DNA of 13,362 bases from Lysobacterales bacterium (GTDB lineage Bacteria > Pseudomonadota > Gammaproteobacteria > Xanthomonadales > SZUA-5): positions 1 to 13,362 of the forward strand of contig JALHMH010000059.1 in assembly GCA_022844165.1 (NCBI GenBank), in the 5' to 3' direction. Both the position numbers and the translations under genes were made by a program. Below the pieces are notes generated by a model. That model did not search any database. It was given only the letters and a program-made list of their open reading frames with translations, and had not been told where the DNA came from. Positions 1 through 12,790 of this stretch are shown in pieces; the stretch's first letter is position 1; each line of letters begins with the position of its first letter.

Positions 1-1027
1 GCCAAGAATTGACGTACTCAAAAAAACTCTGCCCGAAGTGTGCGTTTAACGTCTGCGAGAGCGTATGCGAGCTGATTTGCAGCCGTGAAGCCAGTTCATG
101 CAGGGAGAGTTCTGGCTCCAGAAATGGCATTTCGGTGGACATCAGTGCATTGAGTCTGGCACCGATTTGCGCCAGTTCCTGTGGGCTGATACCGGACCTG
201 GCGTACTTTGGCGTCGCAGTCGATGCCTTCGGGAGTTCAGTCTCACTGCGGTCCAGGGCCGTCGCAGACGCCAGCAATTGGGTGTGTTCTTGCGCATATT
301 CAGAGGCGGGCGAGGGGCGTTGCGCATTCCAAAGTTGCGGCTGGTTCAGGCCCACATAGCCCATGACGTAAACGGAGATCGCCACGCCAAATTGTCCAAG
401 CAGATCGGCCCACGTCCAGAGAAAAACCAATGAGAGCATCCAAAGCGACCAGAGCACTGCGCATATGCAGAGGAGTTGCACCAGCCAACGCAATTTGTAT
501 CGCTCAGCATTGGAGTATTCAGCCTCCAGCGCACGCCAATAGTGACGCAAAACGAAAATGCTTCGCAGCAGATAACCCAATGTCAGTATGCCGACAGCAA
601 TTAGAAAGGCGCTCGGCCCGCTTTCGGTCATGTGTAAATCGGTCATGATCGTCGCACGGCGCGTAGACAGCGGTGCGAATATCTCAGGAAGCAACAAACT
701 CTGGAGCAAGAAGTACGGCAAGAAATGCAGCAGTATCATGGGAAGTCGCCACGGTTGGCGACCGATCATCGTGCGTACATAGCCGTAACAGAGCGGGCCA
801 ATCGCCAGAATCAAAGCGTCGAACAGCTGATACAGATAGGGCAACTCCAGTATTGCCCTGGTCTGCAACAACACATCGCCGAACACCACGAGCGAAAGTG
901 CTGCCACAAAGCCGCCCAGCCACAGCAGTTGCGACTGACGACGTCGCACCGCCAGCGCGGCCAAAAGCAGCGCCAGCAGCAAACCTTGAATGGCCCCGGC
1001 GCCAATAAGCAAGTTCAGAACAATCAT
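1..1027 (-). CDS. Membrane-anchored AraC-family transcriptional regulator (partial, runs off the left edge)
   Basis: Manual translation from ATG at 1027 is open to base 2 (342 codons): MIVLNLLIGAGAIQGLLLALLL...IGPLCYGYVR...LLHFLPY... Several hydrophobic TM segments are followed by KYARSG...PFLEPELSLHELASRLQISSHTLSQTLNAHFGQSFFEYVNSW, the first helix-turn-helix of an AraC domain. It is absent from the ORF track because there is no stop in the window. An in-frame upstream TGA makes 1027 the most upstream start. Confidence 0.92.
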   Translation of the reverse strand, partial: MIVLNLLIGAGAIQGLLLALLLAALAVRRRQSQLLWLGGFVAALSLVVFGDVLLQTRAILELPYLYQLFDALILAIGPLCYGYVRTMIGRQPWRLPMILLHFLPYFLLQSLLLPEIFAPLSTRRATIMTDLHMTESGPSAFLIAVGILTLGYLLRSIFVLRHYWRALEAEYSNAERYKLRWLVQLLCICAVLWSLWMLSLVFLWTWADLLGQFGVAISVYVMGYVGLNQPQLWNAQRPSPASEYAQEHTQLLASATALDRSETELPKASTATPKYARSGISPQELAQIGARLNALMSTEMPFLEPELSLHELASRLQISSHTLSQTLNAHFGQSFFEYVNSW

Positions 1028-1289: not shown

Positions 1290-3422
1290 ATGAAAAGCCG
1301 TTGGCTGTTGCTGGTTCTGATCGTCGTCGCCATCGCGATGTTCTTCGGCTTTGGCCTCGACGACTACTTGTCGCTGCAACGGCTGAAGTCAGAGCAGGCA
1401 GCGCTTGCAGCCTGGATCGCGGACAACGCCGTCATTGCCGCCGCTGCGTACTTCATCGCCTACGTGCTGGTGGCGGCGCTGTCGCTGCCTGGGGCGGCGG
1501 TGATGACGCTCGCGGGCGGCGCGCTGTTCGGTCTTGGATTTGGCACGCTGCTGGTGTCTTTCGCCAGCAGCCTTGGCGCGACGCTCGCCTTCTTCGCCGC
1601 GCGGTTCTTGTTTCGCGATGTGGTGAAAGAGAAGTTCGGCGAGCGCCTGGCGCCAATCGAAGCGGGTGTGGCGCGCGATGGTGCGTTTTACCTGTTCACG
1701 CTGCGCCTGGTGCCGGCGTTCCCGTTTTTCCTGGTGAACCTGTTGATGGGACTGACGCCGATGAAGAGCGGCGTGTTCTATCTCGTCAGCCAGATCGGCA
1801 TGTTGCCGGGCACGGCCGCCTTCGTTTACGCGGGCACGCAGCTGGCTCAAATCGACAGCCTGTCGGGCATATTGTCCCCGGGTTTGCTGGGTGCATTCGC
1901 CATCCTCGGCGTATTGCCGTTGCTGCTGAAGTGGCTGCTCGGTACGCTCGCTGCGCGTCGCGTGTATCGCGGCCACACCAAGCCCAAATCGTTCGACTAT
2001 AACTTGATCGTGATTGGCGCCGGCTCCGCGGGTCTGGTCAGCGCCTACATCGGCGCGGCAGTGAAATCGAAGGTGGCGCTGATCGAGCGGCATCGTATGG
2101 GCGGCGATTGCCTGAACACCGGCTGCGTGCCATCCAAGGCGCTGCTGCGCAGCGCGCGTCTGGTGGCTGAGGCCAAACGCAGCGCGCGTCTGGGCATTCG
2201 CTCGATGCACATCGATATGTCGTTTGCCGAAGTCATGGCCCGTGTGCACAGTGTCATCGCGGCTGTCGCGCCGCACGACTCGGTCGAGCGCTATCGCGGA
2301 CTCGGTGTCGACTGTATCGAGGGCGAAGCGAAGCTGGTGTCGCCGTGGATGGTAACCGTCAATGGCCGGTCGCTGAGCGCTCGTTCGATCATCGTCGCCA
2401 CGGGCGCAAAACCGTTGGTACCGGCCTTGCCGGGTCTGGAAGATGTCGATTACTTGACCACCGATAGCGTCTGGTCGTTACGCGAACAACCGCAGCGTTT
2501 GCTGATCCTGGGCGGCGGCCCGGTGGGTTGCGAGCTGGCGCAAGCGTTTGGGCGCCTGGGCAGTCAGGTGACGCTGGTGGAGATGGCGCCGCGGCTGGTC
2601 CCGCGCGATGAAGACGACGCCAGCGTGGCGCTACGCGCTGCGCTCGAACACGATGGCATCGATATCCGCACTGGCCACAAGGCGCTGCGCTTCGAGCGCG
2701 GTGGCGGCGCCCAGTCGCTGATCGCGCAAGGCGCCGACGGCGAGATCTCGATTCCTTTCGATCGTGTGTTGCTGGCGTTGGGGCGCAAAGCCAATGTCGA
2801 TGGATTTGGCCTGCGCGAACTGGGCGTGGTGTTGAATCAGCGCGGCACGGTGGCCGCAGATACCCTGATGCGCACCAATTTCCCGAACATTGCGGTCTGT
2901 GGCGATGTGACCGGGCCGTTGCAGTTCACGCACGTCGCCGCGCATCAGGCGTGGTACGCGGTGGTTAATCAACTACTCGCGCCGTTCTGGTCGTACCGCG
3001 TCGATATGCGTGTGATTCCCTGGGTGACCTACACTGAACCGCAGGTGGCGCGCGTCGGGCTGTCGGCCGCCGATGCCGAACAACAAAACATCGCTTTCGA
3101 AATCACACGCTACGGCATGGACGATTTGGACCGCGCGATCGCTGATGACACGGCCGAAGGTTTCATTCAAGTGCTTACCGTTCCCGGCAAAGATCGCATT
3201 CTCGGTGCGACGATCGTGCATGCCGAAGCCGGCGAGTTGATCGCCCCATTCGTGCTGGCAATGAAACACAACCTGGGCTTGAACAAGATCCTGGGCACAG
3301 TTCACGCCTACCCAACCTTGATGGAAGGCAACAAATATGTGGCGGGCGCCTGGCGCCGGGCACACGCGCCGATCAAGGCACTGGCCTTCGCAGAACGCTA
3401 TTTCGCTTGGAGACGCACATGA
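1290..3422 (+). CDS. DedA/VTT (TVP38/TMEM64, SNARE-associated) membrane domain fused to a class I pyridine nucleotide-disulfide oxidoreductase (MerA/Lpd-like)
   Basis: The N-terminal ~220 aa are hydrophobic with DedA-type motifs (LPGAAVMTLAGGALFG, GATLAFFAARFLFR, LRLVPAFPFFLVN). Then come the FAD motif IGAGSAG, the redox disulfide GGDCLNTGCVPSK, the NAD motif GGGPVGCE...VTLVE, GDV and C-terminal HAYPTLME. It lacks the MerA C-terminal CC pair, so it is not called merA. Confidence 0.93.
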   Translation: MKSRWLLLVLIVVAIAMFFGFGLDDYLSLQRLKSEQAALAAWIADNAVIAAAAYFIAYVLVAALSLPGAAVMTLAGGALFGLGFGTLLVSFASSLGATLAFFAARFLFRDVVKEKFGERLAPIEAGVARDGAFYLFTLRLVPAFPFFLVNLLMGLTPMKSGVFYLVSQIGMLPGTAAFVYAGTQLAQIDSLSGILSPGLLGAFAILGVLPLLLKWLLGTLAARRVYRGHTKPKSFDYNLIVIGAGSAGLVSAYIGAAVKSKVALIERHRMGGDCLNTGCVPSKALLRSARLVAEAKRSARLGIRSMHIDMSFAEVMARVHSVIAAVAPHDSVERYRGLGVDCIEGEAKLVSPWMVTVNGRSLSARSIIVATGAKPLVPALPGLEDVDYLTTDSVWSLREQPQRLLILGGGPVGCELAQAFGRLGSQVTLVEMAPRLVPRDEDDASVALRAALEHDGIDIRTGHKALRFERGGGAQSLIAQGADGEISIPFDRVLLALGRKANVDGFGLRELGVVLNQRGTVAADTLMRTNFPNIAVCGDVTGPLQFTHVAAHQAWYAVVNQLLAPFWSYRVDMRVIPWVTYTEPQVARVGLSAADAEQQNIAFEITRYGMDDLDRAIADDTAEGFIQVLTVPGKDRILGATIVHAEAGELIAPFVLAMKHNLGLNKILGTVHAYPTLMEGNKYVAGAWRRAHAPIKALAFAERYFAWRRT

Positions 3423-4213
3423 AAATCTACATCGCCATCCTACTGTTCGCGCTGACCGGCAGCGTGGCCGCATTCGACCACGAGCATCGGGCATTCACCG
3501 AACTCCTGGCGCCGCATGTCGCCTGGAACGCCGCTGGAACGAGTACTGGCGTCGACTACGCCGGATTGCAGCGCCAGCGGGCGCCGCTGCGGGAATACCT
3601 GGCGACGCTCTCGGCGGTCGATCAAGCCACGTTCGATGGTTTCACGTTACCCCAGCGTCAGGCATTTCTGATCAACGCGTACAACGCGTACACGCTGGAG
3701 TTGATCCTCACCGCGTACCCGAAACTCGAATCGATCAAAGATCTGGGATCGCTGTTTTCTTCGCCTTGGAAGAAGGCCTTCTTCCGGCTGCTCGGCGAGG
3801 AGCGCCACTTGGACGACGTCGAGCACGGTTTGCTGCGCGGTGCCGAGGACTTCAACGAGCCGCGTATCCACTTCGCCGTGAACTGCGCATCCATTGGTTG
3901 TCCGGCGTTGCGGCCGGAGGCCTTCACCGCTGCGCGATTTGATGCGCAACTCGACGACCAAACGCGTCGATTCCTGCGCGACCGCACGCGCAATCGCTAT
4001 GAGGCGGACGACGATGTGCTGCTGCTGTCGTCGATCTTCGATTGGTACGCCGGCGACTTCGAGACCGGCTGGCGCGGCACCGAGTCGGTGGCGGCATTTG
4101 TCGCGCTGTATGCGGATGCCATCGGCGCCGATCCCGCGCTCGCCGCGCGACTGAAGAGCGACGAGGTGGAGATCGACTATCTCGACTACGACTGGTCGTT
4201 GAATTCGAAATGA
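3419..4213 (+). CDS. Exported DUF547-domain protein (264 aa)
   Basis: ATG at 3419 overlaps the upstream stop (ATGA). It has a signal peptide MKIYIAILLFALTGSVAA and motifs VDY, AFLINAYNAYT, LDDVEHGLLR, EPRIHFAVNCASIGCPAL, LSSIFDWYAGDF, YDWSLN. Confidence 0.92.
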   Translation: MKIYIAILLFALTGSVAAFDHEHRAFTELLAPHVAWNAAGTSTGVDYAGLQRQRAPLREYLATLSAVDQATFDGFTLPQRQAFLINAYNAYTLELILTAYPKLESIKDLGSLFSSPWKKAFFRLLGEERHLDDVEHGLLRGAEDFNEPRIHFAVNCASIGCPALRPEAFTAARFDAQLDDQTRRFLRDRTRNRYEADDDVLLLSSIFDWYAGDFETGWRGTESVAAFVALYADAIGADPALAARLKSDEVEIDYLDYDWSLNSK

Positions 4214-5241
4214 GCGCGCGTGTCATTCTGATCGTGGATGCCAGCCAGGAGGCCCTGCTTCGCGCTGCGTTTATGGGCGCCGGCTTTGCGGTGCGCGTTC
4301 CGACGCCGGACGAGAGCACGCTCGACAGGTGGATCGCGTTGGCGCGTTCAGGCGAAGCCGCGCTGTTCGTCATTGATCCGCGTCGCTTGAATACGGTCAA
4401 TGTCAGTCTCGCTGCCGCTGCCGCGGCCATCCGGTTGCAAATACCAGATGCAGCAGCGGCTGCATCGTTCAGCGACCGCGAACGACCGCTACCGCTGACT
4501 CATAACTGGGCAATCCGGCATGGATTGTTGGGCGCCTTCGGTCGCGTAAGCAAGGCGCAACTCGCACAATCGGCGGAAGCGCTGTTGGAGGCAGCTACGC
4601 GTCGCATCGGCGCGTCATGGCAGCCTGAGCGTGTGCAGCAGTTTGCGCGCGCGCTGTTGACCGTCGATACCGATGCGAATCTTACGCCGACGGCCATGAG
4701 CGACGAATTCGTCGATCGCCTGGCCGATTCGATTCTCGAAGAATGCCTGGCGCTCGGCGATCGACGTTGGCGCCTGAAGTCCTATCCCAGTTGTTTTGTC
4801 GGCATCGATGCGGTCAGCCAGATGGCACGCAAGTTGGGTACTGATCGCGCTGCGGCGACCGCCTTTGGCCAACGCCTGCTTGAACGCGGTTACATCTATC
4901 ACGTCACCGGCGATCAGCCCTTTCGTGACGGCAACTTCTACTATCGGGTGCATCAGATCACTGACCGCCTCAAACGCGTCGATATCGACCAGATCGAACT
5001 GCATCTGCGCAAACGTGTGGCCATCGCCGATCGCACCTGGCGTGGTTTGTCTTTCCCGCGCTGTTTTGTGGGCAGCGACGCGCGCCAGATTTTGATGCGC
5101 GAGGTGGACCTGGGGTTTGCAGAGGCCGTGACATTGGGCCAGGCACTGCTCGAAACCCACGCATTCCGGCACGTGGCCGATGCCCACGATTTTTTTGGCA
5201 CCGACTACTTCTATCGCTTCGTGCCGGAGGTCTACGCATGA
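4210..5241 (+). CDS. Receiver-like N-terminal domain plus two tandem DEP (Dishevelled/Egl-10/Pleckstrin) domains (343 aa)
   Basis: Start moved to ATG 4210 (ATGA overlap). Two 66-aa repeats 90 codons apart (4753-4950, 5023-5220) follow the pattern DRxWR..S[YF]PxCFVGxDA...A...GQxLLE....HV.....F....[FY][YF]YR[VF], matching the DEP consensus. The N-terminus has a beta/alpha receiver-like pattern (VILIVD...LFVID); this part of the call is weaker. Confidence 0.85.
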   Translation: MSARVILIVDASQEALLRAAFMGAGFAVRVPTPDESTLDRWIALARSGEAALFVIDPRRLNTVNVSLAAAAAAIRLQIPDAAAAASFSDRERPLPLTHNWAIRHGLLGAFGRVSKAQLAQSAEALLEAATRRIGASWQPERVQQFARALLTVDTDANLTPTAMSDEFVDRLADSILEECLALGDRRWRLKSYPSCFVGIDAVSQMARKLGTDRAAATAFGQRLLERGYIYHVTGDQPFRDGNFYYRVHQITDRLKRVDIDQIELHLRKRVAIADRTWRGLSFPRCFVGSDARQILMREVDLGFAEAVTLGQALLETHAFRHVADAHDFFGTDYFYRFVPEVYA

Positions 5242-5681
5242 GCCTATGGTTGCTGGTCGCCGCGCTCGCCACTGCTTCACTGGACGAACTCGCATCCGAG
5301 GGTGCTGCCGCGTATCCAGATGCCCCAGTCATTCGCGTCGAACAGGCCGTGGCACGCACGGATGCGCTGCTGCTCGATGCGCGCGGCGCGGAGGAAATGG
5401 CCGTGTCGATGATCGCGGGTGCGATCCCCGCAAACGCGCTCCCGGACGCCATCGGTGATCGCGTCGTGATCGTCTACTGCACGATTGGCGTGCGCAGCGG
5501 CGAGCTGACGCTGGCGCTGCGCAAGCGCGGCATTAATGCCTACAACCTCTACGGCGGCGTGCTCGCCTGGGCGCAGCAAGACGGTGTGTTCGTCGATAGC
5601 GCCGGGCAACCGACGCGCCGCGTGCATGTGTATGGAAAACGCTGGAACCAACTGCCGAAGAGTTTTGAGCCGGTCTTTTGA
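5238..5681 (+). CDS. Rhodanese-like domain protein, probably exported (147 aa)
   Basis: ATGA overlap with the upstream gene. Motifs are LLLDARGAEE..VSMIAGA, the active-site loop IVYCTIGVRS and YNLYGGVLAW. The N-terminus is short and hydrophobic (MSLWLLVAALATA). Confidence 0.9.
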   Translation: MSLWLLVAALATASLDELASEGAAAYPDAPVIRVEQAVARTDALLLDARGAEEMAVSMIAGAIPANALPDAIGDRVVIVYCTIGVRSGELTLALRKRGINAYNLYGGVLAWAQQDGVFVDSAGQPTRRVHVYGKRWNQLPKSFEPVF

Positions 5682-5760
5682 CGGGAACATTTCGAATCCC
5701 GCCAATCCGCTGTCGCAACCTGCGCGGTATGCCGCGCACATCAACCAGGAGAGAGCAACG

Positions 5761-6066
5761 ATGCAAAGTCATACCACCCCGCGCTGGGCCTTGATTGGCG
5801 TGCTTTTTGTCGGTCTGGGCGCTGCTTTCGGCACTTCGGCCTCTGGCACTCTGTCGCCCGGCGGCAGTGTCGACCCCACGGAGCAAGGACGCCGTGTGTA
5901 CCTGAAAAAAATCGCTTGCACAGACTGCCCCGTGCCCGGCGGTGTATCCGACAAGAGCGCGGCGATGACGCTGGTGGAGCGTCTCAACGCCAACGAGTTC
6001 TCGCTTTCGCGCCGCGAGCGCAACGCCGTCGTCAGCTATCTCAATCGCCGCTGGCGCCTGGGCTAA
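5761..6066 (+). CDS. Small exported protein, class I cytochrome c-like pattern but with CxxCP instead of CxxCH (101 aa)
   Basis: SD AGGAG precedes ATG 5761, followed by a signal peptide-like segment and EQGRRVYLKKIACTDCP...LSRRERNAVVSYL. The ORF-track start at 5536 overlaps the rhodanese gene and is rejected. Confidence 0.7.
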   Translation: MQSHTTPRWALIGVLFVGLGAAFGTSASGTLSPGGSVDPTEQGRRVYLKKIACTDCPVPGGVSDKSAAMTLVERLNANEFSLSRRERNAVVSYLNRRWRLG

Positions 6067-6077
6067 GGAATATCAAG

Positions 6078-6908
6078 ATGAGAAAATTATTCGCTGTGGC
6101 TTTGAGTTGTGTGGGGATTGCGCCGGCATTTGCTGTATCGCCGTGGCTGCCGGTCGCTGGCGGACACGAATTCAGCGTCAGCTATATCGATCAAAACGCA
6201 GATCGTTTTTTTGTCGGCGAAAACGAAATGAACTTGCCGGCCGATCTTGAGCTGCGCACCTTTCAGGTGAACTATGCGTATGGCATCAACGACCGCTGGG
6301 CGCTCGATGTTCAGGCCGGTTACGCCGAGAGCGATTTCATCGTCGATCCAGGCCTGGCGCCGCGCGGCGGGCTCGATGGCTTCACCGATGCGCGGATCGG
6401 GTTGCGTTGGCTGGCATTCGATCAATTCGATGGCCGTCCGTTCACGCTGACGTTGGCGGGCGCTGTGCTGATCGAAGGCGACTACGATACCGGCGCGATT
6501 TCTGCTATCGGCGATGGCGCCAGTGGCGGCGAGTTGTCGCTGATCACCGGTCGCAGCTTCGACTCCGGATTTGCCTGGCAGAGCGAGTTGGGTTATCGCT
6601 TCCGCAGCGGCGAGGTGCCGAACGAGTGGTTTTTCAATCGTACTTTGAGCTACGGATTCAATGATCGTATTTCGGGTCGCCTGAGCTGGAACTCAGTCGA
6701 CGGTCGCGGCGATCTGGACATCGGCGGCCCTGGATTCTCGCCAGCCCGTTTTCCAGAGCTCGAAGAGGACTACGATCTATGGCTCGCAGGCGTGAGCTTT
6801 GTGCCCAGCGATACCTGGCTGCTTGGGTTCGATTACGGTCGTAAGTTCGATGGCCGCAACACCGCCAAGAGTGATGTGTTCGCGTTCACTGTCGGCCGGA
6901 GTTTCTGA
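6078..6908 (+). CDS. Outer-membrane beta-barrel protein, putative channel (276 aa)
   Basis: SD TAAGGA precedes ATG 6078, followed by signal peptide MRKLFAVALSCVGIAPAFA. There are many amphipathic aromatic-ended strands (VNYAYGINDRWALDVQAGY, WQSELGYRFR, LLGFDYGRK) and a C-terminal BAM-type signal FAFTVGRSF. Confidence 0.85.
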   Translation: MRKLFAVALSCVGIAPAFAVSPWLPVAGGHEFSVSYIDQNADRFFVGENEMNLPADLELRTFQVNYAYGINDRWALDVQAGYAESDFIVDPGLAPRGGLDGFTDARIGLRWLAFDQFDGRPFTLTLAGAVLIEGDYDTGAISAIGDGASGGELSLITGRSFDSGFAWQSELGYRFRSGEVPNEWFFNRTLSYGFNDRISGRLSWNSVDGRGDLDIGGPGFSPARFPELEEDYDLWLAGVSFVPSDTWLLGFDYGRKFDGRNTAKSDVFAFTVGRSF

Positions 6909-7639
6909 TGCGCACCGTCGCCGTTATTCCGGCGCGCGATGAGGCGCAGGTGATCGGGCGCGTGGTTGGCGACTTGCTCAGCGCGCGGCGGGGACGCCGC
7001 GCGTTGGTCGATCGCGTCATCGTCTGCGACAACGGTTCGGTCGATGGCACCGGCGCGGTTGCCGCAGCCGCTGGAGCATTGGTGGTGCGCGAGGAGCGCC
7101 GAGGTTATGGCGCCGCCTGTTTGCGCGCGCTGCGCGAGATCGGCGATGCCGAGGCCGTATTGTTCGTCGACGGCGATGGTTCGGTGCGTGCCGAGGACGC
7201 CTGGGCGCTGCTGCTTGCCCTCGATCAGGGTGTCGATCTGGCCCTTGGTCAGCGCCCGCTGGAATGGGTGGAACCCGGCGCCATGACGCCGCCGCAAGTG
7301 GCAGGAACGCGTTTTGCGGTCATGCTGATCCGCTGTTTGTTCGGCTATCGATTCGCTGACCTGGGTCCGCTGCGCGCGATCCGGCGGGCGTCGCTCGAGC
7401 GATTGCATATGGCGGACGCGGCTTACGGTTGGACCGTCGAGATGCAAGTCAAAGCGCTGCTCCACGACCTGCGCATCGTCGAATTGCCAGTGCACACCGA
7501 TAGACGCGTAGGGTTGAGCAAAATCAGCGGCACCTGGCGCGGCGTGATTGGCGCAGGATGCGGCATCATCGGCATGACGCTGAAACTGCGCATCGGCGCC
7601 TGGGTCGACGCGTTGCGGCGGCGCTCGCTCGCCGCGTGA
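6908..7639 (+). CDS. GT2 family glycosyltransferase, DPM1/polyprenol-phosphate glycosyltransferase-like (243 aa)
   Basis: TGATG overlap with the upstream gene. Motifs are VIPARDEA, VIVCDNGSVDGT, RGYGAAC, a DxD motif (FVDGDGS), DLGPLRAIR, GWTVEMQVKA and SKISGT. Confidence 0.92.
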   Translation: MRTVAVIPARDEAQVIGRVVGDLLSARRGRRALVDRVIVCDNGSVDGTGAVAAAAGALVVREERRGYGAACLRALREIGDAEAVLFVDGDGSVRAEDAWALLLALDQGVDLALGQRPLEWVEPGAMTPPQVAGTRFAVMLIRCLFGYRFADLGPLRAIRRASLERLHMADAAYGWTVEMQVKALLHDLRIVELPVHTDRRVGLSKISGTWRGVIGAGCGIIGMTLKLRIGAWVDALRRRSLAA

Positions 7640-8913
7640 ACGTGCTGCTGGCGACTTTTGCGCTGCTCGCCATTGGCACACGCGCCGGATGGCCGCTACC
7701 GGTCTTAGTGGTGTTACTGCTGCTCGCACACCTGGCATTGCTCGGCTGCTGGCGCGAGCGTTTTTCGCGGCGTCGTTTGATGGCAGGCGCGACGCTCGCG
7801 GGATTGCTCGCGATGGCGGCCGTCCCGGTGGCTGAAGACGATTTTTATCGCTACCAGTGGGACGGCTGGCGCACGCTCAATCATGGCACGCCGTATGGCG
7901 CGGCACCGGCGAATCATTTTGGCGATGAGAGCCTGCCGGCCGCTGCACAAGCCGCGCTCGATGGCGTGAACTATCCCGATACACCCACCATTTATGGGCC
8001 TTTGTTGCAGGCACTGTTTGCGACGTCGTGGCTGCTGGGTGAGAACAGCTTTTGGCCGCTGCGTTCATTGACGCTGGCGCTGCATCTTGCCGCACTCTGG
8101 TTGGTGATGCGTTATGCGTCGCGGCGTGCGCTGGCGCTGGTCGCGCTCAATCCGGCGCTGTATTTCTTCGGTTTCATCAATCTGCATCCGGATATCTTGC
8201 TCGGCTGGCTGTTGTTGTTCGCCTGCATTGCAGCTCGTCGGACGCGAATTGCGACAGTGGGGGCGCTGCTTGGCGCGGCGGTGGCGACCAAAATCAGCGG
8301 GTTGATCGTAGCTCCCCTGCTGCTTGCTGCCGGTGGATTCGGCGCAGCGCTGCGCCGCGGAACGCCTGCGATGCTGGCCGCAATGGTGATGAGTTATGCG
8401 CCGTTTCTCGCATTCGGCGATGCCGCCGGGTTGCTCGCGTTTGGCAAGGAGTGGATCTTCAATCCTGGCGCATTTGCGCTGCTCGCGTTGGCATTCGGTG
8501 CCGATATTGCGCGCCTCATTGGCGCCGCGTTATTGCTCATTCTGGCGACAGCGCTACTGCGCACTCGGCGCGAGAATCTGGCGCGCAGCGCCGTCGTTTT
8601 GTTGTCAGCACTATTGCTGGTGGCACCCGTGGTCAACGCCTGGTACGTGCTGTGGTTGTTGCCGCTGGCAGCGCTCACGCGGGCGCAGACGCCGTTTGCG
8701 CTCGCCGCCGCGCTATCGTTGTCGCTGATGACGCGGGGCGAACTCGGTTTGGCTGGCGATCCGTTCTCCCTCGTGCCCTGGGCCGCAAGCTTGCAATGGT
8801 CGTTGATTGGCATCGCTGTTGCCTTCGATTTCATTCGTTGGCGAAAGGCGCATCAATACGCTCCGGTCTTGTCCGGATCGCATGGAGGCGCGCGCGCTTG
8901 CTCACCGCATTGA
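7636..8913 (+). CDS. Polytopic GT-C fold glycosyltransferase (GT87/DUF2029/MptB-like) (425 aa)
   Basis: GTG at 7636 overlaps the GT2 stop (GTGA). The first extracytoplasmic loop has EDDFYRYQWDG and PTIYGP, followed by ALNP, H-x-D, ATK and PVVNAWYVLWLLP. There are roughly ten hydrophobic segments. Confidence 0.82.
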   Translation: MNVLLATFALLAIGTRAGWPLPVLVVLLLLAHLALLGCWRERFSRRRLMAGATLAGLLAMAAVPVAEDDFYRYQWDGWRTLNHGTPYGAAPANHFGDESLPAAAQAALDGVNYPDTPTIYGPLLQALFATSWLLGENSFWPLRSLTLALHLAALWLVMRYASRRALALVALNPALYFFGFINLHPDILLGWLLLFACIAARRTRIATVGALLGAAVATKISGLIVAPLLLAAGGFGAALRRGTPAMLAAMVMSYAPFLAFGDAAGLLAFGKEWIFNPGAFALLALAFGADIARLIGAALLLILATALLRTRRENLARSAVVLLSALLLVAPVVNAWYVLWLLPLAALTRAQTPFALAAALSLSLMTRGELGLAGDPFSLVPWAASLQWSLIGIAVAFDFIRWRKAHQYAPVLSGSHGGARACSPH

Positions 8914-9959
8914 TCATCGCCACGCTGCTGCTTGCCGCTGCCAATGGCGGCAATGACAACATCAAGGGTGCAGCCACATTGCTCGGCGCGGGGCTGCTGA
9001 CGTATCGACAGGCAATATTCGGCGCGACGATTGCAACTGCAATGGGCGGCCTGATCTCGATTTTGATCGCTCAGGAGTTGCTCGCGTTATTTAGTGGGCG
9101 CGGCATTGTGCCTGATGGTCTGACGTCGACGCCGGCCTTCCTGCTGTCGGTTGCGCTGGCCGCGGGAATCACCGTGGCAATTGCCACCGTAGCAGGATTG
9201 CCGATCTCGACGACGCATGCGCTGGTTGGTGGCCTGCTCGGCGCGGGTCTTGGCAGTAAGGCGGTGGTGAATTTTGTGGCTGCCGCGACCGCGACCGCAT
9301 TGCCGTTGTTGTTGTCGCCGCTGATCGCTATGGCGGCGGCGCTCACGTTGGTGCCGGTTGTGGTTCGTTTGCGGCAGCGCCTGCAACCGCTGTGCGTCTG
9401 CGCCGTGCCGGTCGGCGGACCTGCGGCGAGCGTGGCCCGCGTTGTTGCAGCCAGCGACGATCCGCGCTGCGAAACTGCGCTGGAGCGCAGCGAATTGCGC
9501 CCGGCGAAATTGCTCGATGGCGCGCACCTGCTGAGTGCCAGTGCGGTCAGCTTCGCGCGCGGTCTGAACGACACGCCAAAAATCGCAGCCTTGCTGGTGG
9601 CCAGCGGCGCCGCCGATGTATGGGTCGCGGGCAGTGCGGTGGTGTTGGCGATGAGCTTGGGCGCAATTGCGGCGATTCGCGTCGCGCGCACCATGGCCTT
9701 TAAGGTTACCTCGATCGATGCGCCGCCAGGCCTGGCGGCGAATCTGGTCACCTCGTTTCTGGTGATCGGTGCCTCTCGGTTGGGTTTGCCGGTGTCCACT
9801 ACCCACGTGAGTACCGGTGCATTATTCGGCATTGCTCTTGGGCAACGAAGCGGCAGCCCAAGCGTCATCCGCAATATTCTGCTGGCGTGGTTGGCGACGT
9901 TGCCGATTGCCGCATTGCTGGCGTTCTCCATCGCACAACTTCTGAGGAGCTTTTCATGA
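8898..9959 (+). CDS. PiT/PHO4-family inorganic phosphate/anion transporter, divergent signature (353 aa)
   Basis: TTG start at 8898 with GGAGG at 8884-8888. Duplicated PiT motifs are ANGGNDNIKG / PISTTHALVGGLLGAG and ARGLNDTPK / GLPVSTTHVSTGALFG, with C-terminal AWLATLP. Confidence 0.9.
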   Translation: MLTALIIATLLLAAANGGNDNIKGAATLLGAGLLTYRQAIFGATIATAMGGLISILIAQELLALFSGRGIVPDGLTSTPAFLLSVALAAGITVAIATVAGLPISTTHALVGGLLGAGLGSKAVVNFVAAATATALPLLLSPLIAMAAALTLVPVVVRLRQRLQPLCVCAVPVGGPAASVARVVAASDDPRCETALERSELRPAKLLDGAHLLSASAVSFARGLNDTPKIAALLVASGAADVWVAGSAVVLAMSLGAIAAIRVARTMAFKVTSIDAPPGLAANLVTSFLVIGASRLGLPVSTTHVSTGALFGIALGQRSGSPSVIRNILLAWLATLPIAALLAFSIAQLLRSFS

Positions 9960-10990
9960 TTGCCACCGAATCTCTCGCCGCCATTCGTCATTACTACGGC
10001 AGCGTACTGCAGTCGTCGAGCGATCTGAAGACCGGCGCCTGCTGCACGATCGACGCCATGCCGGCGTATTTGCGTCGACTGTTGGACGACGTGCACCCGG
10101 CCGTTCGCGAGCGTTTCTACGGTTGCGGCTCGCCTCTGCCGCTGGCGCTCGAAGGCATGACGGTGCTCGATCTGGGTTGCGGCAGTGGCCGCGATGCGTA
10201 TCTGTTGTCGCGTCTGGTGGGCGAACGCGGCCGCGTCATCGGCGTCGATATGACGGCCGAGCAACTGGCCGTGGCCCGTGCGCACCTGGATTGGCAGGCA
10301 CAACGCTACGGCTATGCGCAGAGCAACGTCGAGTTCGTCGAAGGTTTCATCGAAGATTTGAGCGCCTGCGGTATCGCCGACGGCAGCGTCGATGTCGTCG
10401 TCAGCAACTGTGTGCTCAATTTGTCGCCGGAGAAACCGCGCGTGTTCCGCGAGATCATGCGCGTGCTCAAACCGGGTGGCGAGTTGTACTTCTCAGACGT
10501 TTTTGCCGATCGCCGCGTGCCTGCGGATCTTGCGCGCAATCCGGTACTGCTCGGCGAATGCCTGGGTGGCGCCATGTACCGCGAGGACTTTCGGCGCCTG
10601 ATGGCGAATGCCGGTTGCAGCGACGTGCGGCGCATCAAGGAATCGCCGATTGCGCTGCACGACGAAGCGATCATCGCCAAGATCGGCATGATCGGTTTCG
10701 CGTCTGTCACCTGGCGCGCTTTCAAGCTGCCGCTGGAAGATCGCTGCGAGGACTTTGGCCAAATCGCGACCTATCGCGGCAGCATCGACGGCGCGCCGCA
10801 TGCCTTTGATCTCGATGACCACCATCATTTCGAAACTGGCCGGCCGCTGCGTGTCTGCGGCAATACCTTCGACATGCTCGCAAGCACGCGTTTTGCCGCG
10901 CATTTCGAACTGGTTGGCGATAAACGCCGTCACTACGGACTATTCGATTGTGCGCCGGCGCCAGTCGCTAACGCCGCCCCTTGCTGCTGA
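9956..10990 (+). CDS. arsM: Arsenite S-adenosylmethionine methyltransferase, long AS3MT-like form (344 aa)
   Basis: ATG 9956 has an ATGA overlap and SD GAGGAG. The SAM motif is VLDLGCGSGRD with IGVDMT. All four As-binding Cys positions are present: DLKTGACC, FYGCG, SNCVLNL, GECLGGA. The protein ends in CC. Confidence 0.9.
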   Translation: MIATESLAAIRHYYGSVLQSSSDLKTGACCTIDAMPAYLRRLLDDVHPAVRERFYGCGSPLPLALEGMTVLDLGCGSGRDAYLLSRLVGERGRVIGVDMTAEQLAVARAHLDWQAQRYGYAQSNVEFVEGFIEDLSACGIADGSVDVVVSNCVLNLSPEKPRVFREIMRVLKPGGELYFSDVFADRRVPADLARNPVLLGECLGGAMYREDFRRLMANAGCSDVRRIKESPIALHDEAIIAKIGMIGFASVTWRAFKLPLEDRCEDFGQIATYRGSIDGAPHAFDLDDHHHFETGRPLRVCGNTFDMLASTRFAAHFELVGDKRRHYGLFDCAPAPVANAAPCC

Positions 10991-10999
10991 GAGCTTGCC

Positions 11000-11950
11000 A
11001 TGCACGACGTCCTGCCGCGCCTTCAGGCGCACCGGTTTCCCGCCATCGAGCGTGAGCGTATCGATACGCTGCAATTGAACTTGGGTTACCTGTGCAATTT
11101 GAGTTGCATCCACTGCCACGTCAACGCCGGGCCGCGGCGCAAAGAATTGATGGATCGGCACACGATGGAATTGGCGTTCGATGTCGCGGCACGCCACGGC
11201 GTAAAGCGTTTCGATCTGACCGGCGGATCGCCGGAAATGAACCCGCACTTTCGCGCTCTGGTGACAGAGGCGATTGCGCGCGGCATTCATGTGATGGATC
11301 GGCTCAACCCGACGATCATGGAAGAGCCGGGTTACGAATGGGTCGGGAGCTTTCTAGCCGAGCAGCGTGTAGAAGTTGTCGCATCGCTGCCGTGTTACAG
11401 CCAGTCGAATGTCGATGAGCAGCGCGGCGACGGCGTCTTCGAATCGTCGATCCGTGCTTTGCAGCAACTGAATGCGCTCGGTTATGGCAGCGATCCGGGC
11501 TTGCCGTTGAACCTGGTGTACAACCCCAACGGCGCCTTCCTGCCGCCCAATCAGCAGAAGCTCGAAGTCGACTACAAGCGCTTGCTCCAGGAGAATTTCG
11601 GTATCCGCTTCAACGCGCTGTTTGCACTCGCCAACATGCCCATCCAGCGCTTTGGGTCGTGGCTCGTATCCAAGGGCAAGTTCGACGAGTACTTGCTAAA
11701 GCTGATCGATGCGCACCGCGACGACAACCTGCCCGGCGTGATGTGTCGCTCGCTACTCAGCGTGGACTACGACGGTTATGTCTTCGACTGCGACTTCAAC
11801 CAGATGCTGCGTTTGTCTGCGAGCGATAGACCCCTGCACTTGCGCGATCTGTTGCAGGCCGAGATCCCGCGCAAAATCGCTGTCGCAGGCCATTGTTTTG
11901 GCTGCACGGCGGGCCAAGGTTCGAGCTGCGGCGGGGCGTTGGCGGCGTAA
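11000..11950 (+). CDS. arsS: Arsenosugar biosynthesis radical SAM protein with DUF3641 C-terminal domain (316 aa)
   Basis: Motifs are LQLNLGYLCNLSCIHCHVNAGP (CxxxCxxC), DLTGGSPEMNP, ASLPCY, LNLVYNP.GAFLPP, NMPI.RF, MCRSLLSVDYDG..DCDFNQML and HCFGCTAGQGSSCGG. It is adjacent to arsM. Confidence 0.93.
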   Translation: MHDVLPRLQAHRFPAIERERIDTLQLNLGYLCNLSCIHCHVNAGPRRKELMDRHTMELAFDVAARHGVKRFDLTGGSPEMNPHFRALVTEAIARGIHVMDRLNPTIMEEPGYEWVGSFLAEQRVEVVASLPCYSQSNVDEQRGDGVFESSIRALQQLNALGYGSDPGLPLNLVYNPNGAFLPPNQQKLEVDYKRLLQENFGIRFNALFALANMPIQRFGSWLVSKGKFDEYLLKLIDAHRDDNLPGVMCRSLLSVDYDGYVFDCDFNQMLRLSASDRPLHLRDLLQAEIPRKIAVAGHCFGCTAGQGSSCGGALAA

Positions 11951-12298: not shown

Positions 12299-12790
12299 AT
12301 GTTTCGTCTTGCACTGATCACGACAATCTGTGTTTCGATGACCGGTTGCGCCACGATGCGCGACCGGCCGACGGTTGAACGAATCGACGATTGGTTCGCA
12401 AAGACCAAGTACGTCATCGAAATCCAGTCCACCCAAACGCCGCAGGAGCTGATGGATGGACTTAAACAAGCGCCCTGTCAGGATGGGACTGTGGACTCGT
12501 CCGGAACGGCGGTCGTTGGACCGAATGCCTACGCACCCGTGAGCGTCAGTGTCCGGTTTTACACGGATTTTGGTACCTATCCTGACGGCAGCCTTTGGGC
12601 ATCGATGAATTCGTCCTCGCTAATGATGCATGACTCGGTCATGGCCGTAAGAGCATTCGCAACGGACACGGGATCGAGGGTTTTGATTACACCAGTCGTG
12701 CGCGAAAAGAACGACGAAATCAAGTCGCAACTTGAAGCCGGCTTGTTGTTGTGCAACTGGCGCCTGTACGTTGATCCCTGGCGCATGTAA
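12299..12790 (+). CDS. Hypothetical lipoprotein (163 aa)
   Basis: SD-like AAGGGGGT upstream, and signal peptide MFRLALITTICVSMTG|C with a lipobox-like MTGC. No family recognised. It appears less GC-rich than the operon. Confidence 0.75.
   Translation: MFRLALITTICVSMTGCATMRDRPTVERIDDWFAKTKYVIEIQSTQTPQELMDGLKQAPCQDGTVDSSGTAVVGPNAYAPVSVSVRFYTDFGTYPDGSLWASMNSSSLMMHDSVMAVRAFATDTGSRVLITPVVREKNDEIKSQLEAGLLLCNWRLYVDPWRM

Follow-up and report, generated by a model that had tools for sequence, protein, structure and literature searches.

The stretch of DNA analysed here (the window) is the entire 13,362-bp contig C59 of the 59-contig, 4.68-Mb genome of a Lysobacterales bacterium. Within it, a gene for a GT2 glycosyltransferase (6908..7639, +; 243 amino acids) and a gene for a polytopic membrane glycosyltransferase of the GT-C fold (7636..8913, +; 425 amino acids) are separated by a single transporter gene from an arsM-like gene and arsS, genes of organoarsenical metabolism. 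We propose that the two enzymes form a two-step carrier-lipid glycosylation system within an envelope module allied to organoarsenic genes, a reading to which we assign a probability of roughly 0.6. The module is widespread, occurring in many phyla, and the pair is part of it rather than an independent adjunct of arsS; joined in this bacterium to arsM and arsS, the module is a candidate for an envelope step in arsenic metabolism, which falls short of proof.

Genomic setting of the transferase pair

The GT2 and GT-C genes are real and not chance open reading frames (ORFs), because at least 588 related stretches of genome exist and because both proteins gave confident structure models, with predicted local distance difference test (pLDDT) values of 93.0 for the GT-C protein and 92.2 for the GT2. 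The related stretches, each encoding a relative of the GT-C protein, come from a scan of one genome per species, and the best 80 of them were studied as loci, which carry L numbers below. In the window, the pair belongs to a tightly coupled operon of 11 co-directional (+) genes spanning 1290-11950, whose junctions show overlaps of 16, 4, 4, 1, 4, 4 and 4 bases and gaps of just 79, 11 and 9. The GT2 gene runs from ATG 6908 to TGA 7639; its start overlaps the stop of the preceding outer-membrane barrel gene as TGATG, and its stop overlaps the GTG start of the GT-C gene as GTGA (7636-7639). An earlier reading of the sequence (the original prediction) had described a DPM1-like GT2 coupled by GTGA to a GT-C enzyme, in an operon headed by a DedA domain and containing an arsenosugar gene. 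This description holds: the GT2 aligns over its full length with dolichyl-phosphate mannose synthase (DPMS) and ArnC, the GT-C protein matches ALG3, the ArsS protein exceeds its curated cut-off, and a DedA domain is indeed encoded by the first gene, although it is fused to a complete flavin adenine dinucleotide (FAD) disulfide oxidoreductase.

Fold, motifs and family of the GT-C enzyme

At the level of its model, which was built on 73 relatives and has a predicted template modelling score (pTM) of 0.91, the assignment of the protein to the GT-C fold is unambiguous. A second structural aligner superposed it on ALG3 with a Z score of 24.1 over 332 residues and a root-mean-square deviation of 3.8 Å, followed by glycosylphosphatidylinositol (GPI) mannosyltransferase I (PIG-M; 22.6), ALG6 (19.2), PimE (17.9) and ArnT (15.9), and every chain in rows 1-43 of the structural comparison has the GT-C fold. 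The top ranks of Foldseek were likewise taken by ALG6, ALG3, GPI mannosyltransferase I, PimE, Emb and ArnT, none of them at E≤0.001.

Conservation across the 73 aligned relatives is concentrated in a few motifs. The columns D68, D69, R72, W75, D76, H184, N276, N334, W336 and Y337 are invariant, while E67, Y73, P185, D186 and K219 are at least 90% conserved; together they delineate the invariant motif E-D-D-x-x-R-Y-x-W-D, which opens with E67-D68-D69, as well as H-P-D, K219 and N-x-W-Y. The E-D-D motif directly follows helix 45-60, which aligns as the first transmembrane helix (TM1) of solved GT-C enzymes. Since the structural alignments start at residues 37-44, the helices in 1-38 are an N-terminal extra and the motif stands after the canonical TM1. 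The DD motif had been placed by the original prediction in the first external loop, which is correct insofar as the motif is present, invariant and located in the first loop of canonical GT-C numbering; it is not the literal first loop of this protein, in which two additional N-terminal helices precede it. The D68/D69 pair would be the catalytic centre, as the presumed equivalent of the catalytic aspartate of solved enzymes.

Comparison with PimE provides a more specific parallel. In that enzyme, D58 at the tip of the first juxtamembrane helix is reported as the catalytic base, Y62 is hydrogen-bonded to D58, and K195 is essential and binds and stabilises the phosphate of the donor (PMC12041525). 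The spacing of D69 and Y73 in the GT-C protein is the same as that of D58 and Y62. When the family profile was compared with the sequences of the PDB, PimE was the sole match, with a non-significant E of 2.6, and in this alignment K219 falls on K195 of PimE. This correspondence, along with a DPM1-like GT2 that is translationally coupled here and fused in one relative, indirectly suggests that the donor of the GT-C enzyme would be a sugar linked to polyprenyl phosphate.

In terms of family, the sequence comparisons place the relatives of the GT-C protein at the edge of GT87. The original prediction had singled out GT87 (formerly DUF2029) for comparison: the window protein itself has no Pfam match even at E≤10, including PF09594 (GT87; gathering threshold 25 bits), and no NCBIfam match, but PF09594 is matched by 31 of the 73 relatives at E≤0.01 (best 1.1e-8), and the orthologue of L015 scores 30.2 bits. 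The precomputed tag PF26314 (MptA_B_family) is carried by 25 of 27 database homologues, and the nearest Atlas clusters are named as GT87/MptA_B family, with PF26314 in 83-96% of their members; hmmscan returned nothing for PF26314 with the window protein or with the homologues P0001 and P0002, in a Pfam copy that possibly does not contain that model. The alignment of relatives left out L023, L045 and L069 (internal stops), L014 and L071 (length), and L049.

Acceptor class of the GT2 enzyme

The GT2 contains a D88-G-D90 motif, an R200-x-G202-x-S-K205 motif, which we take as a hallmark of the GT2 class acting on polyprenyl or dolichyl phosphate, and a long hydrophobic C-terminal helix (210-242). 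Among 54 sequences, from which L076 (internal stop) and L071 were left out, D90, R200, G202 and K205 are invariant and D88 is at least 90% conserved. The protein matches PF00535 with 52.7 bits. A profile of the 54 orthologues aligned with the DPMS of Pyrococcus furiosus (5mlz) over positions 3-214 (E 9.4e-14) and with ArnC over positions 5-212 (E 4.4e-7), both alignments including R-x-G-x-S-K, and weakly with GtrB, whereas GpgS and MpgS match the N-terminal part of the profile alone, at positions 4-96.

The best NCBIfam scores, all of them under their cut-offs, are those of AglJ (TIGR04182, 93.7 against 325), DPhHxTase_Halo (57.6 against 375) and PpgS (36.6 against 370); the glucosyl-3-phosphoglycerate synthase model gave 46.1 bits, and the ArnC model gave 21.4 against 529 on the GT2 orthologue of L079. 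The possibility, raised along with the original prediction, that the GT2 might be a standard member of TIGR04283 did not materialise, since its score, confined to profile positions 4-86, was 21.6 bits where the cut-off is 182, and its orthologues reach 30.1-37.6; neither the GT2 nor the GT-C protein matches TIGR04282 at E≤0.01.

The structure model was compared with the convention that rows within 1 Z unit are tied. DPMS has a Z score of 24.2 (230 residues, range 1..243), GpgS 23.6 (212 residues, range 1..233), MpgS 23.5, ArnC 21.6 and GtrB 18.1, and the C-terminal helix 210-242 is aligned by DPMS alone. Foldseek ranked GpgS first (E 3.3e-12, 24% identity). On the combined grounds of the sequence evidence and the GT-C context, which favour a polyprenyl-phosphate acceptor, the enzyme is probably a polyprenyl-phosphate sugar synthase.

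A five-gene envelope module

The 80 GT-C loci come from Lysobacterales, other Gammaproteobacteria, Vicinamibacterales, Rhodothermales, Nitrospirales, Binatia, Thermodesulfobacteriota and others. Their neighbours were counted with hidden Markov models (HMMs) and phmmer on every ORF up to about 10 kb from the GT-C gene. The most constant partner is a small exported protein with a C-x-x-C-P motif, henceforth the CxxCP protein (72/80, by jackhmmer), followed by a DUF547 protein (67/80), an outer-membrane barrel (56/80) and the GT2 family (55/80, with scores of 170-402); in 29 of the 55 loci that have the GT2, it is directly adjacent to the GT-C gene on the same strand. These counts support the earlier view that the GT2 feeds the GT-C enzyme as a pair, as does the single ORF 9821-11902 of L071, which the HMMs for GT-C (341 bits) and for GT2 (294 bits) both match. 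Such a GT-C::GT2 fusion occurs in this one locus of the 80; none was found among 27 near homologues, and a search among longer proteins, which covered 964-2750 residues only, found nothing. Prediction of a complex between the two proteins gave a score of 0.00 in both runs, which says nothing either way.

All five genes occur together in 33 of the 80 loci, in many gene orders, and an unbiased clustering of neighbours at stricter coverage revealed no further family in more than eight loci. The core of the module is thus made up of the CxxCP protein, the barrel, the GT2, the GT-C enzyme and DUF547. VTT/DedA (19/80) and a disulfide reductase (18/80), which are fused in the window, are accessory and not core, and rhodanese and ArsM-like genes are present in 4/80 loci each. 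Two apparent fusions were rejected: the 695-residue GT-C::DUF547 ORF of L027-type loci is a DUF547 ORF extended in an alternative frame over the GT-C gene, and the rhodanese tail of P0010 scores 17.8 for PF00581, under the cut-off of 22.2, with no BLAST similarity to the rhodanese of the window.

In the window, the CxxCP protein (5761..6066, +; 101 amino acids) has a G-K/R...C-x-x-C-P motif and a Y-L-x-R-R-x-x-L tail, and it belongs to no Pfam or NCBIfam family. Its G-(K/R)-x7-(K)-x2-C-x-x-C-P stretch resembles the haem-binding stretch at the N-terminus of class I cytochromes c, except that proline takes the place of the histidine, and in the Atlas it was matched to unnamed clusters (0.96) and to weak cytochrome c clusters (0.92). 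The barrel (6078..6908, +; 276 amino acids) matches PF13557 with 28.3 bits. The exported DUF547 protein (3419..4213, +; PF04784, 89.2 bits) has two invariant cysteines in N-C-A-S-x-G-C-P, namely C156 and C161 (43 sequences). Its ATG at 3419 overlaps the upstream stop, and the N-terminus resembles a signal peptide by eye. The DUF547 profile gave nothing significant against the sequences of the PDB, and a literature search at the level of listings found no function for bacterial DUF547.

The accessory unit at the head of the operon is a 710-residue fusion of a DedA (VTT/TVP38) domain with an FAD pyridine-nucleotide-disulfide oxidoreductase (1290..3422, +), in which PF09335 covers residues 70-183 and PF07992 together with PF02852 residues 237-680; it scores 484.6 bits for NF004991, under the cut-off of 620. 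The rhodanese-domain protein (5238..5681, +; PF00581, 35.8 bits) has a hydrophobic, signal-like N-terminus and scores 83.8 bits for NF045521 ('rhoda_near_glyco'), under the cut-off of 145. The set of cysteine-containing periplasmic proteins (CxxCP, DUF547 and rhodanese), taken with the CxxxxC flavoenzyme of the cytoplasm, suggests thiol chemistry, which would suit trivalent arsenicals.

Association with arsenic genes

The arsenic section of the operon comprises three genes. The PiT/PHO4-family transporter gene (8910..9959, +; PF01384, 175.9 bits) is translationally coupled on both sides, its TTG start overlapping the GT-C stop as TTGA and an ATGA overlap occurring at its other junction, and it is part of this section. 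The ArsM-like S-adenosylmethionine-dependent arsenite methyltransferase (9956..10990, +; PF13847) is under every curated ArsM cut-off, with 184.7 against 263 for NF008823 (the best) and 106.3 against 400 for the arsenosugar-type NF038099; it may be an ArsM that has diverged or, possibly, a methyltransferase that acts on a related substrate. The radical SAM enzyme ArsS of arsenosugar biosynthesis (11000..11950, +) scores 428.4 bits for TIGR04167 against a cut-off of 300, with the radical SAM (PF04055) and DUF3641 (PF12345) domains.

Among the 80 GT-C loci, a true ArsS is encoded within 10 kb of the GT-C gene in five, in three architectures, and one further locus has an unrelated radical SAM protein (39 bits). 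The host's nearest relative in the public set, a Lysobacterales metagenome-assembled genome (MAG; L010), has the same layout as the window; L015 has the order GT2-small-OMP-GT-C-sigma-PiT-ArsS-ArsM, where OMP denotes the outer-membrane protein; and in L079, L080 and L089, ArsS lies between DUF547 and GT-C. By chance, about 0.3 such adjacencies would be expected in 80 loci, a rough figure based on 20 kb of about 4 Mb multiplied by about 0.7. In addition, ArsM and PiT adjoin the module in L039, while in L071 three genes come right after the module: one that belongs to TIGR04282 (179.7 against 134), one that resembles TIGR04283 (161.9 against 182) and one for an ArsM-like protein.

The latter locus (L071:7226-17363, in a Porphyrobacter MAG) encodes a HAD hydrolase, a fatty-acid hydroxylase, the CxxCP protein, the GT-C::GT2 fusion and DUF547, and continues with the TIGR04282 and TIGR04283-like proteins, an acyl reductase-like protein (NAD_binding_4), the ArsM-like protein and a radical SAM protein that is not ArsS (63 bits for TIGR04167). 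No ArsS was found in the L071 genome, and the locus may represent a lipid-directed variant of the pathway.

On the scale of whole genomes, ArsS exceeds its cut-off in 33 of 50 and in 25 of 30 GT-C genomes, or in 56 of 78 distinct genomes, since two occur twice. In an even draw of 400 genomes from the class to which the host belongs, ArsS is present in 186 and GT-C in 17. ArsS occurs in 15 of the 17 GT-C genomes versus 171 of the 383 others (odds ratio 9.3, Fisher p 6.5e-4, uncorrected for kinship). The class counts include the unpublished genomes G191 (GT-C and ArsS) and G346, G089 and G358 (ArsS), and leave out G298.

The reverse view was obtained from 40 ArsS loci, which were taken from the top of the score list of the class sample, subject to sufficient flanking sequence, and are not a random draw. 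Their ArsS genes are accompanied by TIGR04282-like genes in 26 loci, TIGR04283-like genes in 25, ArsM in 15, a disulfide reductase in 15, VTT/DedA in 13 and DUF547 of this type in one; the GT2 genes beside ArsS score just 28-37 bits with the HMM of the module GT2. PiT stands beside ArsS in 4 of the 40 (L098, L105, L109 and L126), as it does in L015 and L039, and may supply arsenate or phosphate to the pathway. The unit of DedA (VTT) and FAD disulfide reductase, fused or split, often adjoins ArsS even where the GT-C module is missing (L090-L129), and it bridges the GT-C loci and the ArsS loci.

These loci also bear on two further statements of the original prediction, namely that transferases of the TIGR04282 and TIGR04283 types, which usually accompany arsS, are missing here, and that the GT2/GT-C pair may be an alternative route in their place. 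The former is accurate, both for the window, where neither type is encoded, and for the sampled ArsS loci. The latter is not supported by the five ArsS loci (L102, L105, L106, L117 and L127) whose genomes hold a GT-C module elsewhere: as 5/5 of them keep both transferase relatives beside ArsS, the module comes on top of the two transferases and is no substitute for them. In the host genome, relatives of both types do exist as lone genes far from arsS, both below threshold. The TIGR04283 relative (C16:21984-22625, -, corresponding to L130:6994-7635) scores 170.9 against 182 and lies between an FKBP isomerase gene and gspD, and the TIGR04282 relative (C7:38484-39230, -, corresponding to L131:6907-7653) scores 95.4-96 against 134 and lies by gcvH. 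Overall, the GT-C module is a separate unit that sometimes docks to ArsS, and the link between the two is loose and partial but repeated.

Proposed mechanism and comparison with known systems

In the mechanism that we propose, the GT2 would use a nucleotide-activated donor to load a sugar on polyprenyl (undecaprenyl) phosphate at the cytoplasmic face of the membrane; the loaded lipid would be flipped across the membrane by some other protein; the GT-C enzyme would transfer the sugar to an acceptor at the periplasmic face; and the barrel may pass the product outward. The translational coupling of the module to PiT-ArsM-ArsS would then reflect a working partnership, at the envelope, with organoarsenical metabolism. 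The folds, the motifs, the coupling of the genes, the conservation of the module and its statistical link to ArsS are observed, whereas we infer that the GT2 uses a lipid acceptor, in which direction the sugar is transferred and that arsenic chemistry is involved. ALG3, PIG-M, ALG6 and PimE act on lipid-anchored acceptors, and because the GT-C protein, like them, has no soluble domain, its acceptor is most likely a membrane-anchored lipid or glycolipid, with the exported CxxCP or DUF547 protein as an alternative possibility.

The flipping step had been attributed to DedA by the original prediction, a role that the data do not favour. VTT is present in 19/80 loci and occurs about as often beside ArsS where GT-C is missing (13/40), and here it forms part of a reductase fusion; moreover, the DedA proteins studied so far are reported to flip and recycle free undecaprenyl phosphate, and not the loaded carrier as far as the cited account extends (PMC12893004). 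By analogy, such a recycling role would fit here, yet the domain is reductase-fused and inconstant.

The GT2 and GT-C pair is in itself of a known kind, as exemplified by Ppm1/PimE and the Gtr and Arn systems. In the mycobacterial system of Ppm1 with PimE (GT87) or MptA and MptB (PF26314), a cytoplasmic DPM1-like GT2 makes the lipid donor and a compact GT-C enzyme that has no soluble domain uses it outside the membrane. The likeness extends to the acidic residue after TM1 with a tyrosine four residues on, to the lysine at the position of K195 and to the families PF26314 and PF09594 carried by relatives of the window protein. The window protein itself, however, has no Pfam match and only the non-significant profile match to PimE, its host is Gram-negative, and the mycobacterial pathway for phosphatidylinositol mannosides and lipomannan has no counterpart of the CxxCP protein, DUF547 or the barrel. 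The eukaryotic DPM1 with ALG3, PIG-M or ALG6 provides the best structural matches of the GT-C protein, just as DPMS does for the GT2, although the identity is just 12-20%, so that the fold and the class of mechanism are alike but family membership is not implied.

The sequence of synthase, flipping and GT-C enzyme is shared with GtrA/GtrB/GtrC, with ArnC/ArnE-F/ArnT and with a pentofuranose system, in which a polyprenyl-phosphoribose synthase, a MATE flippase and a GT136 enzyme form three components (PMC11127046). The profile of the window GT2 aligns with ArnC and weakly with GtrB; in contrast to these systems, no gene of the GtrA, ArnE/F or MATE type is present here and DedA is inconstant. 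Unlike Gtr and Arn, the window locus stands outside any O-antigen or lipid A locus, and the pentofuranose system is reported to load its sugar from 5-phosphoribosyl-1-pyrophosphate (PRPP), not by means of a GT2 (PMC11127046). With respect to the ArsM-ArsS core that is accompanied by TIGR04282/TIGR04283 proteins, the operon has a full ArsS member, an adjacent ArsM and the DedA and reductase unit that is a frequent ArsS neighbour (13-15/40). It differs in that the TIGR04282- and TIGR04283-like genes are missing from it, in the low score of its GT2 for TIGR04283 and in that the GT-C module is no usual ArsS neighbour.

Of the mycobacterial enzymes MtxS and MtxT, the former is a GT2 and the latter a GT-C enzyme. 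Methylthioadenosine is a 5'-substituted 5'-deoxyadenosine. MtxS (Rv0539) is reported to make a lipid-linked 5-methylthio-xylose donor (PMC12088412), and MtxT (Rv0541c) to add methylthio-xylose to lipoarabinomannan (PMC8780516). The product of ArsS, 5'-deoxy-5'-dimethylarsinoyl-adenosine (DDMAA), is similarly a 5'-substituted 5'-deoxyadenosine (PMC13598754). DDMAA is formally the arsenic analogue of methylthioadenosine, which makes it chemically plausible that a carrier lipid could bear an arsenopentose. Compared by description only, MtxS/MtxT and the window pair would share a lipid-linked donor of a 5-substituted 5-deoxy-pentose and a second enzyme that transfers it outside the membrane, which makes MtxS/MtxT the best precedent, by chemical analogy, for an ArsS-derived sugar on a carrier lipid; they differ in that arsenic would replace sulfur and that the module also occurs in genomes where ArsS was not detected.

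Alternative explanations

Several observations weigh against a two-step carrier-lipid system allied to organoarsenic genes. The GT2 is over no curated equivalog cut-off and is therefore a member of no named equivalog; the tie in Z score between DPMS, GpgS and MpgS means that the fold alone leaves its acceptor class unfixed; 25 of the 80 GT-C loci do not encode this GT2 within 10 kb; and no recognisable flippase of the GtrA, ArnE/F or MATE Pfam families is among the 13 ORFs of the window. With regard to arsenic, 22 of the 78 GT-C genomes, these 22 being MAGs of undefined completeness, showed no ArsS; the GT-C enzyme, the CxxCP protein and the barrel occur near ArsS in 0/40 of the sampled ArsS loci; and because ArsS is common in the class (186/400) and related genomes are not independent, the co-occurrence of the two is weaker evidence than it appears. 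Were the GT2 a GpgS- or MpgS-like cytoplasmic enzyme that acts on a small phosphorylated acceptor, with the GT-C enzyme using a carrier-linked sugar made elsewhere, the first rank of GpgS in Foldseek, its tied Z score (23.6 versus 24.2) and the loci devoid of this GT2 would be accommodated. This is very improbable in view of the coverage of the profile (4-96 by GpgS and MpgS versus 3-214 by DPMS and ArnC, including R-x-G-x-S-K), the scores of the AglJ and dolichyl-phosphate hexose transferase models, which are about twice that of the GpgS model, the hydrophobic C-terminal helix that DPMS alone aligns, and the fusion to GT-C in L071.

The nature of the arsenic link permits opposite deviations from our proposal. 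The module could be an ordinary envelope glycosylation unit that has no tie to arsenic, its adjacency to PiT-ArsM-ArsS arising from the shuffling of accessory genes that share a habitat; this is unlikely. In its favour, ArsS stands by just 5 of 80 GT-C loci and GT-C by none of 40 ArsS loci, the background of ArsS in the class is high, the gene order of the module varies widely, and the window, a short contig in its entirety, is accessory in character. This reading is countered by the five adjacencies where about 0.3 would be expected, found in three architectures, along with the ArsM and TIGR04282 links in L039 and L071, by the odds ratio of 9.3 for co-occurrence in genomes, by the DedA and reductase unit present in both kinds of locus (19/80 and 13/40), and by the seven start/stop overlaps that bind both parts of the operon here. 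Conversely, an arsenic-bearing pentose may itself be the cargo, as methylthio-xylose is in mycobacteria: arsenoribose derived from the ArsS product would be freed and activated, after which the GT2 would load it on polyprenyl phosphate and the GT-C enzyme would pass it to an envelope lipid, glycan or protein. This is a doubtful proposition. The shared 5'-substituted 5'-deoxyadenosine chemistry with the MtxS/MtxT precedent, the location of ArsS within the module of L079, L080 and L089, and the coupling of the module to ArsM-ArsS in the window, L010 and L015 speak for it, as do the genome co-occurrence (15/17 versus 171/383) and the TIGR04282 member directly after the module in L071, which we take to have a nucleotidyltransferase-like fold. 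Set against these are the 22 of 78 module genomes with no detected ArsS, the 0/40 ArsS loci with the module, and a window that encodes no phosphorylase or nucleotidyltransferase, the TIGR04282 relative of the genome being sub-threshold and located elsewhere. Furthermore, the characterised route to lipid-linked ribofuranose is reported to use PRPP and a different synthase, not a GT2 (PMC11127046), and the sequence gives no clue to the identity of the sugar. In a bolder form, which we likewise hold only as a speculation with a small chance of being right, the module would be the missing envelope arm of organoarsenic metabolism, in which arsenoribose would pass by way of GT2 and GT-C to a lipid or an exported cysteine-containing protein, the CxxCP, DUF547, rhodanese and DedA::reductase proteins would handle periplasmic trivalent arsenicals or thiol adducts, and the barrel would export the product.

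Implications

In the literature searched, no assigned genes were found for the steps after ArsS, from the arsenic nucleoside to arsenosugars and arsenolipids. The search, which covered listings, abstracts and few subscription journals, also found no description of the constant module and its tie to ArsS. The present analysis defines a compact and widespread module, encoded in at least 588 genome stretches across many phyla, in which three of the five core proteins (the CxxCP protein, DUF547 and the GT87-like GT-C branch) are without described function. Its measurable, partial link to ArsS provides concrete targets for knock-out and biochemical studies, including a cultured isolate that has both the module and ArsS (L073, Arenicella sp.). 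If the arsenic link is incidental, the module would still be a new conserved glycosylation unit of the Gram-negative envelope and the first context for bacterial DUF547; if the arsenoribose reading is true, it would be the arsenic counterpart of methylthioxylose capping in mycobacteria.

Other features of the window

The remaining gene of the operon encodes a protein with two DEP domains (4210..5241, +; PF00610 in two stretches, 122.1 bits), to which the DUF547 gene 3419-4213 is translationally coupled; it has a counterpart in 1/80 related loci and is lineage-specific. A consensus scan of the window for promoters and terminators gave 1 promoter-like and 15 terminator-like sites versus 3.0 and 14.5 in shuffled sequences and was uninformative.

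Downstream, 348 bases past arsS, an ORF of 163 amino acids (12299-12790, +) is lipoprotein-like, with a cysteine after a signal-like N-terminus; it has no family match and no counterpart among the 80 related loci. Upstream, a divergent ORF (2-1027, -) is cut by the end of the contig, and family scans give no match for it. It encodes a membrane domain of several helices, and what comes next looks by eye like the beginning of an AraC-type helix-turn-helix; the product may be the regulator of the operon.

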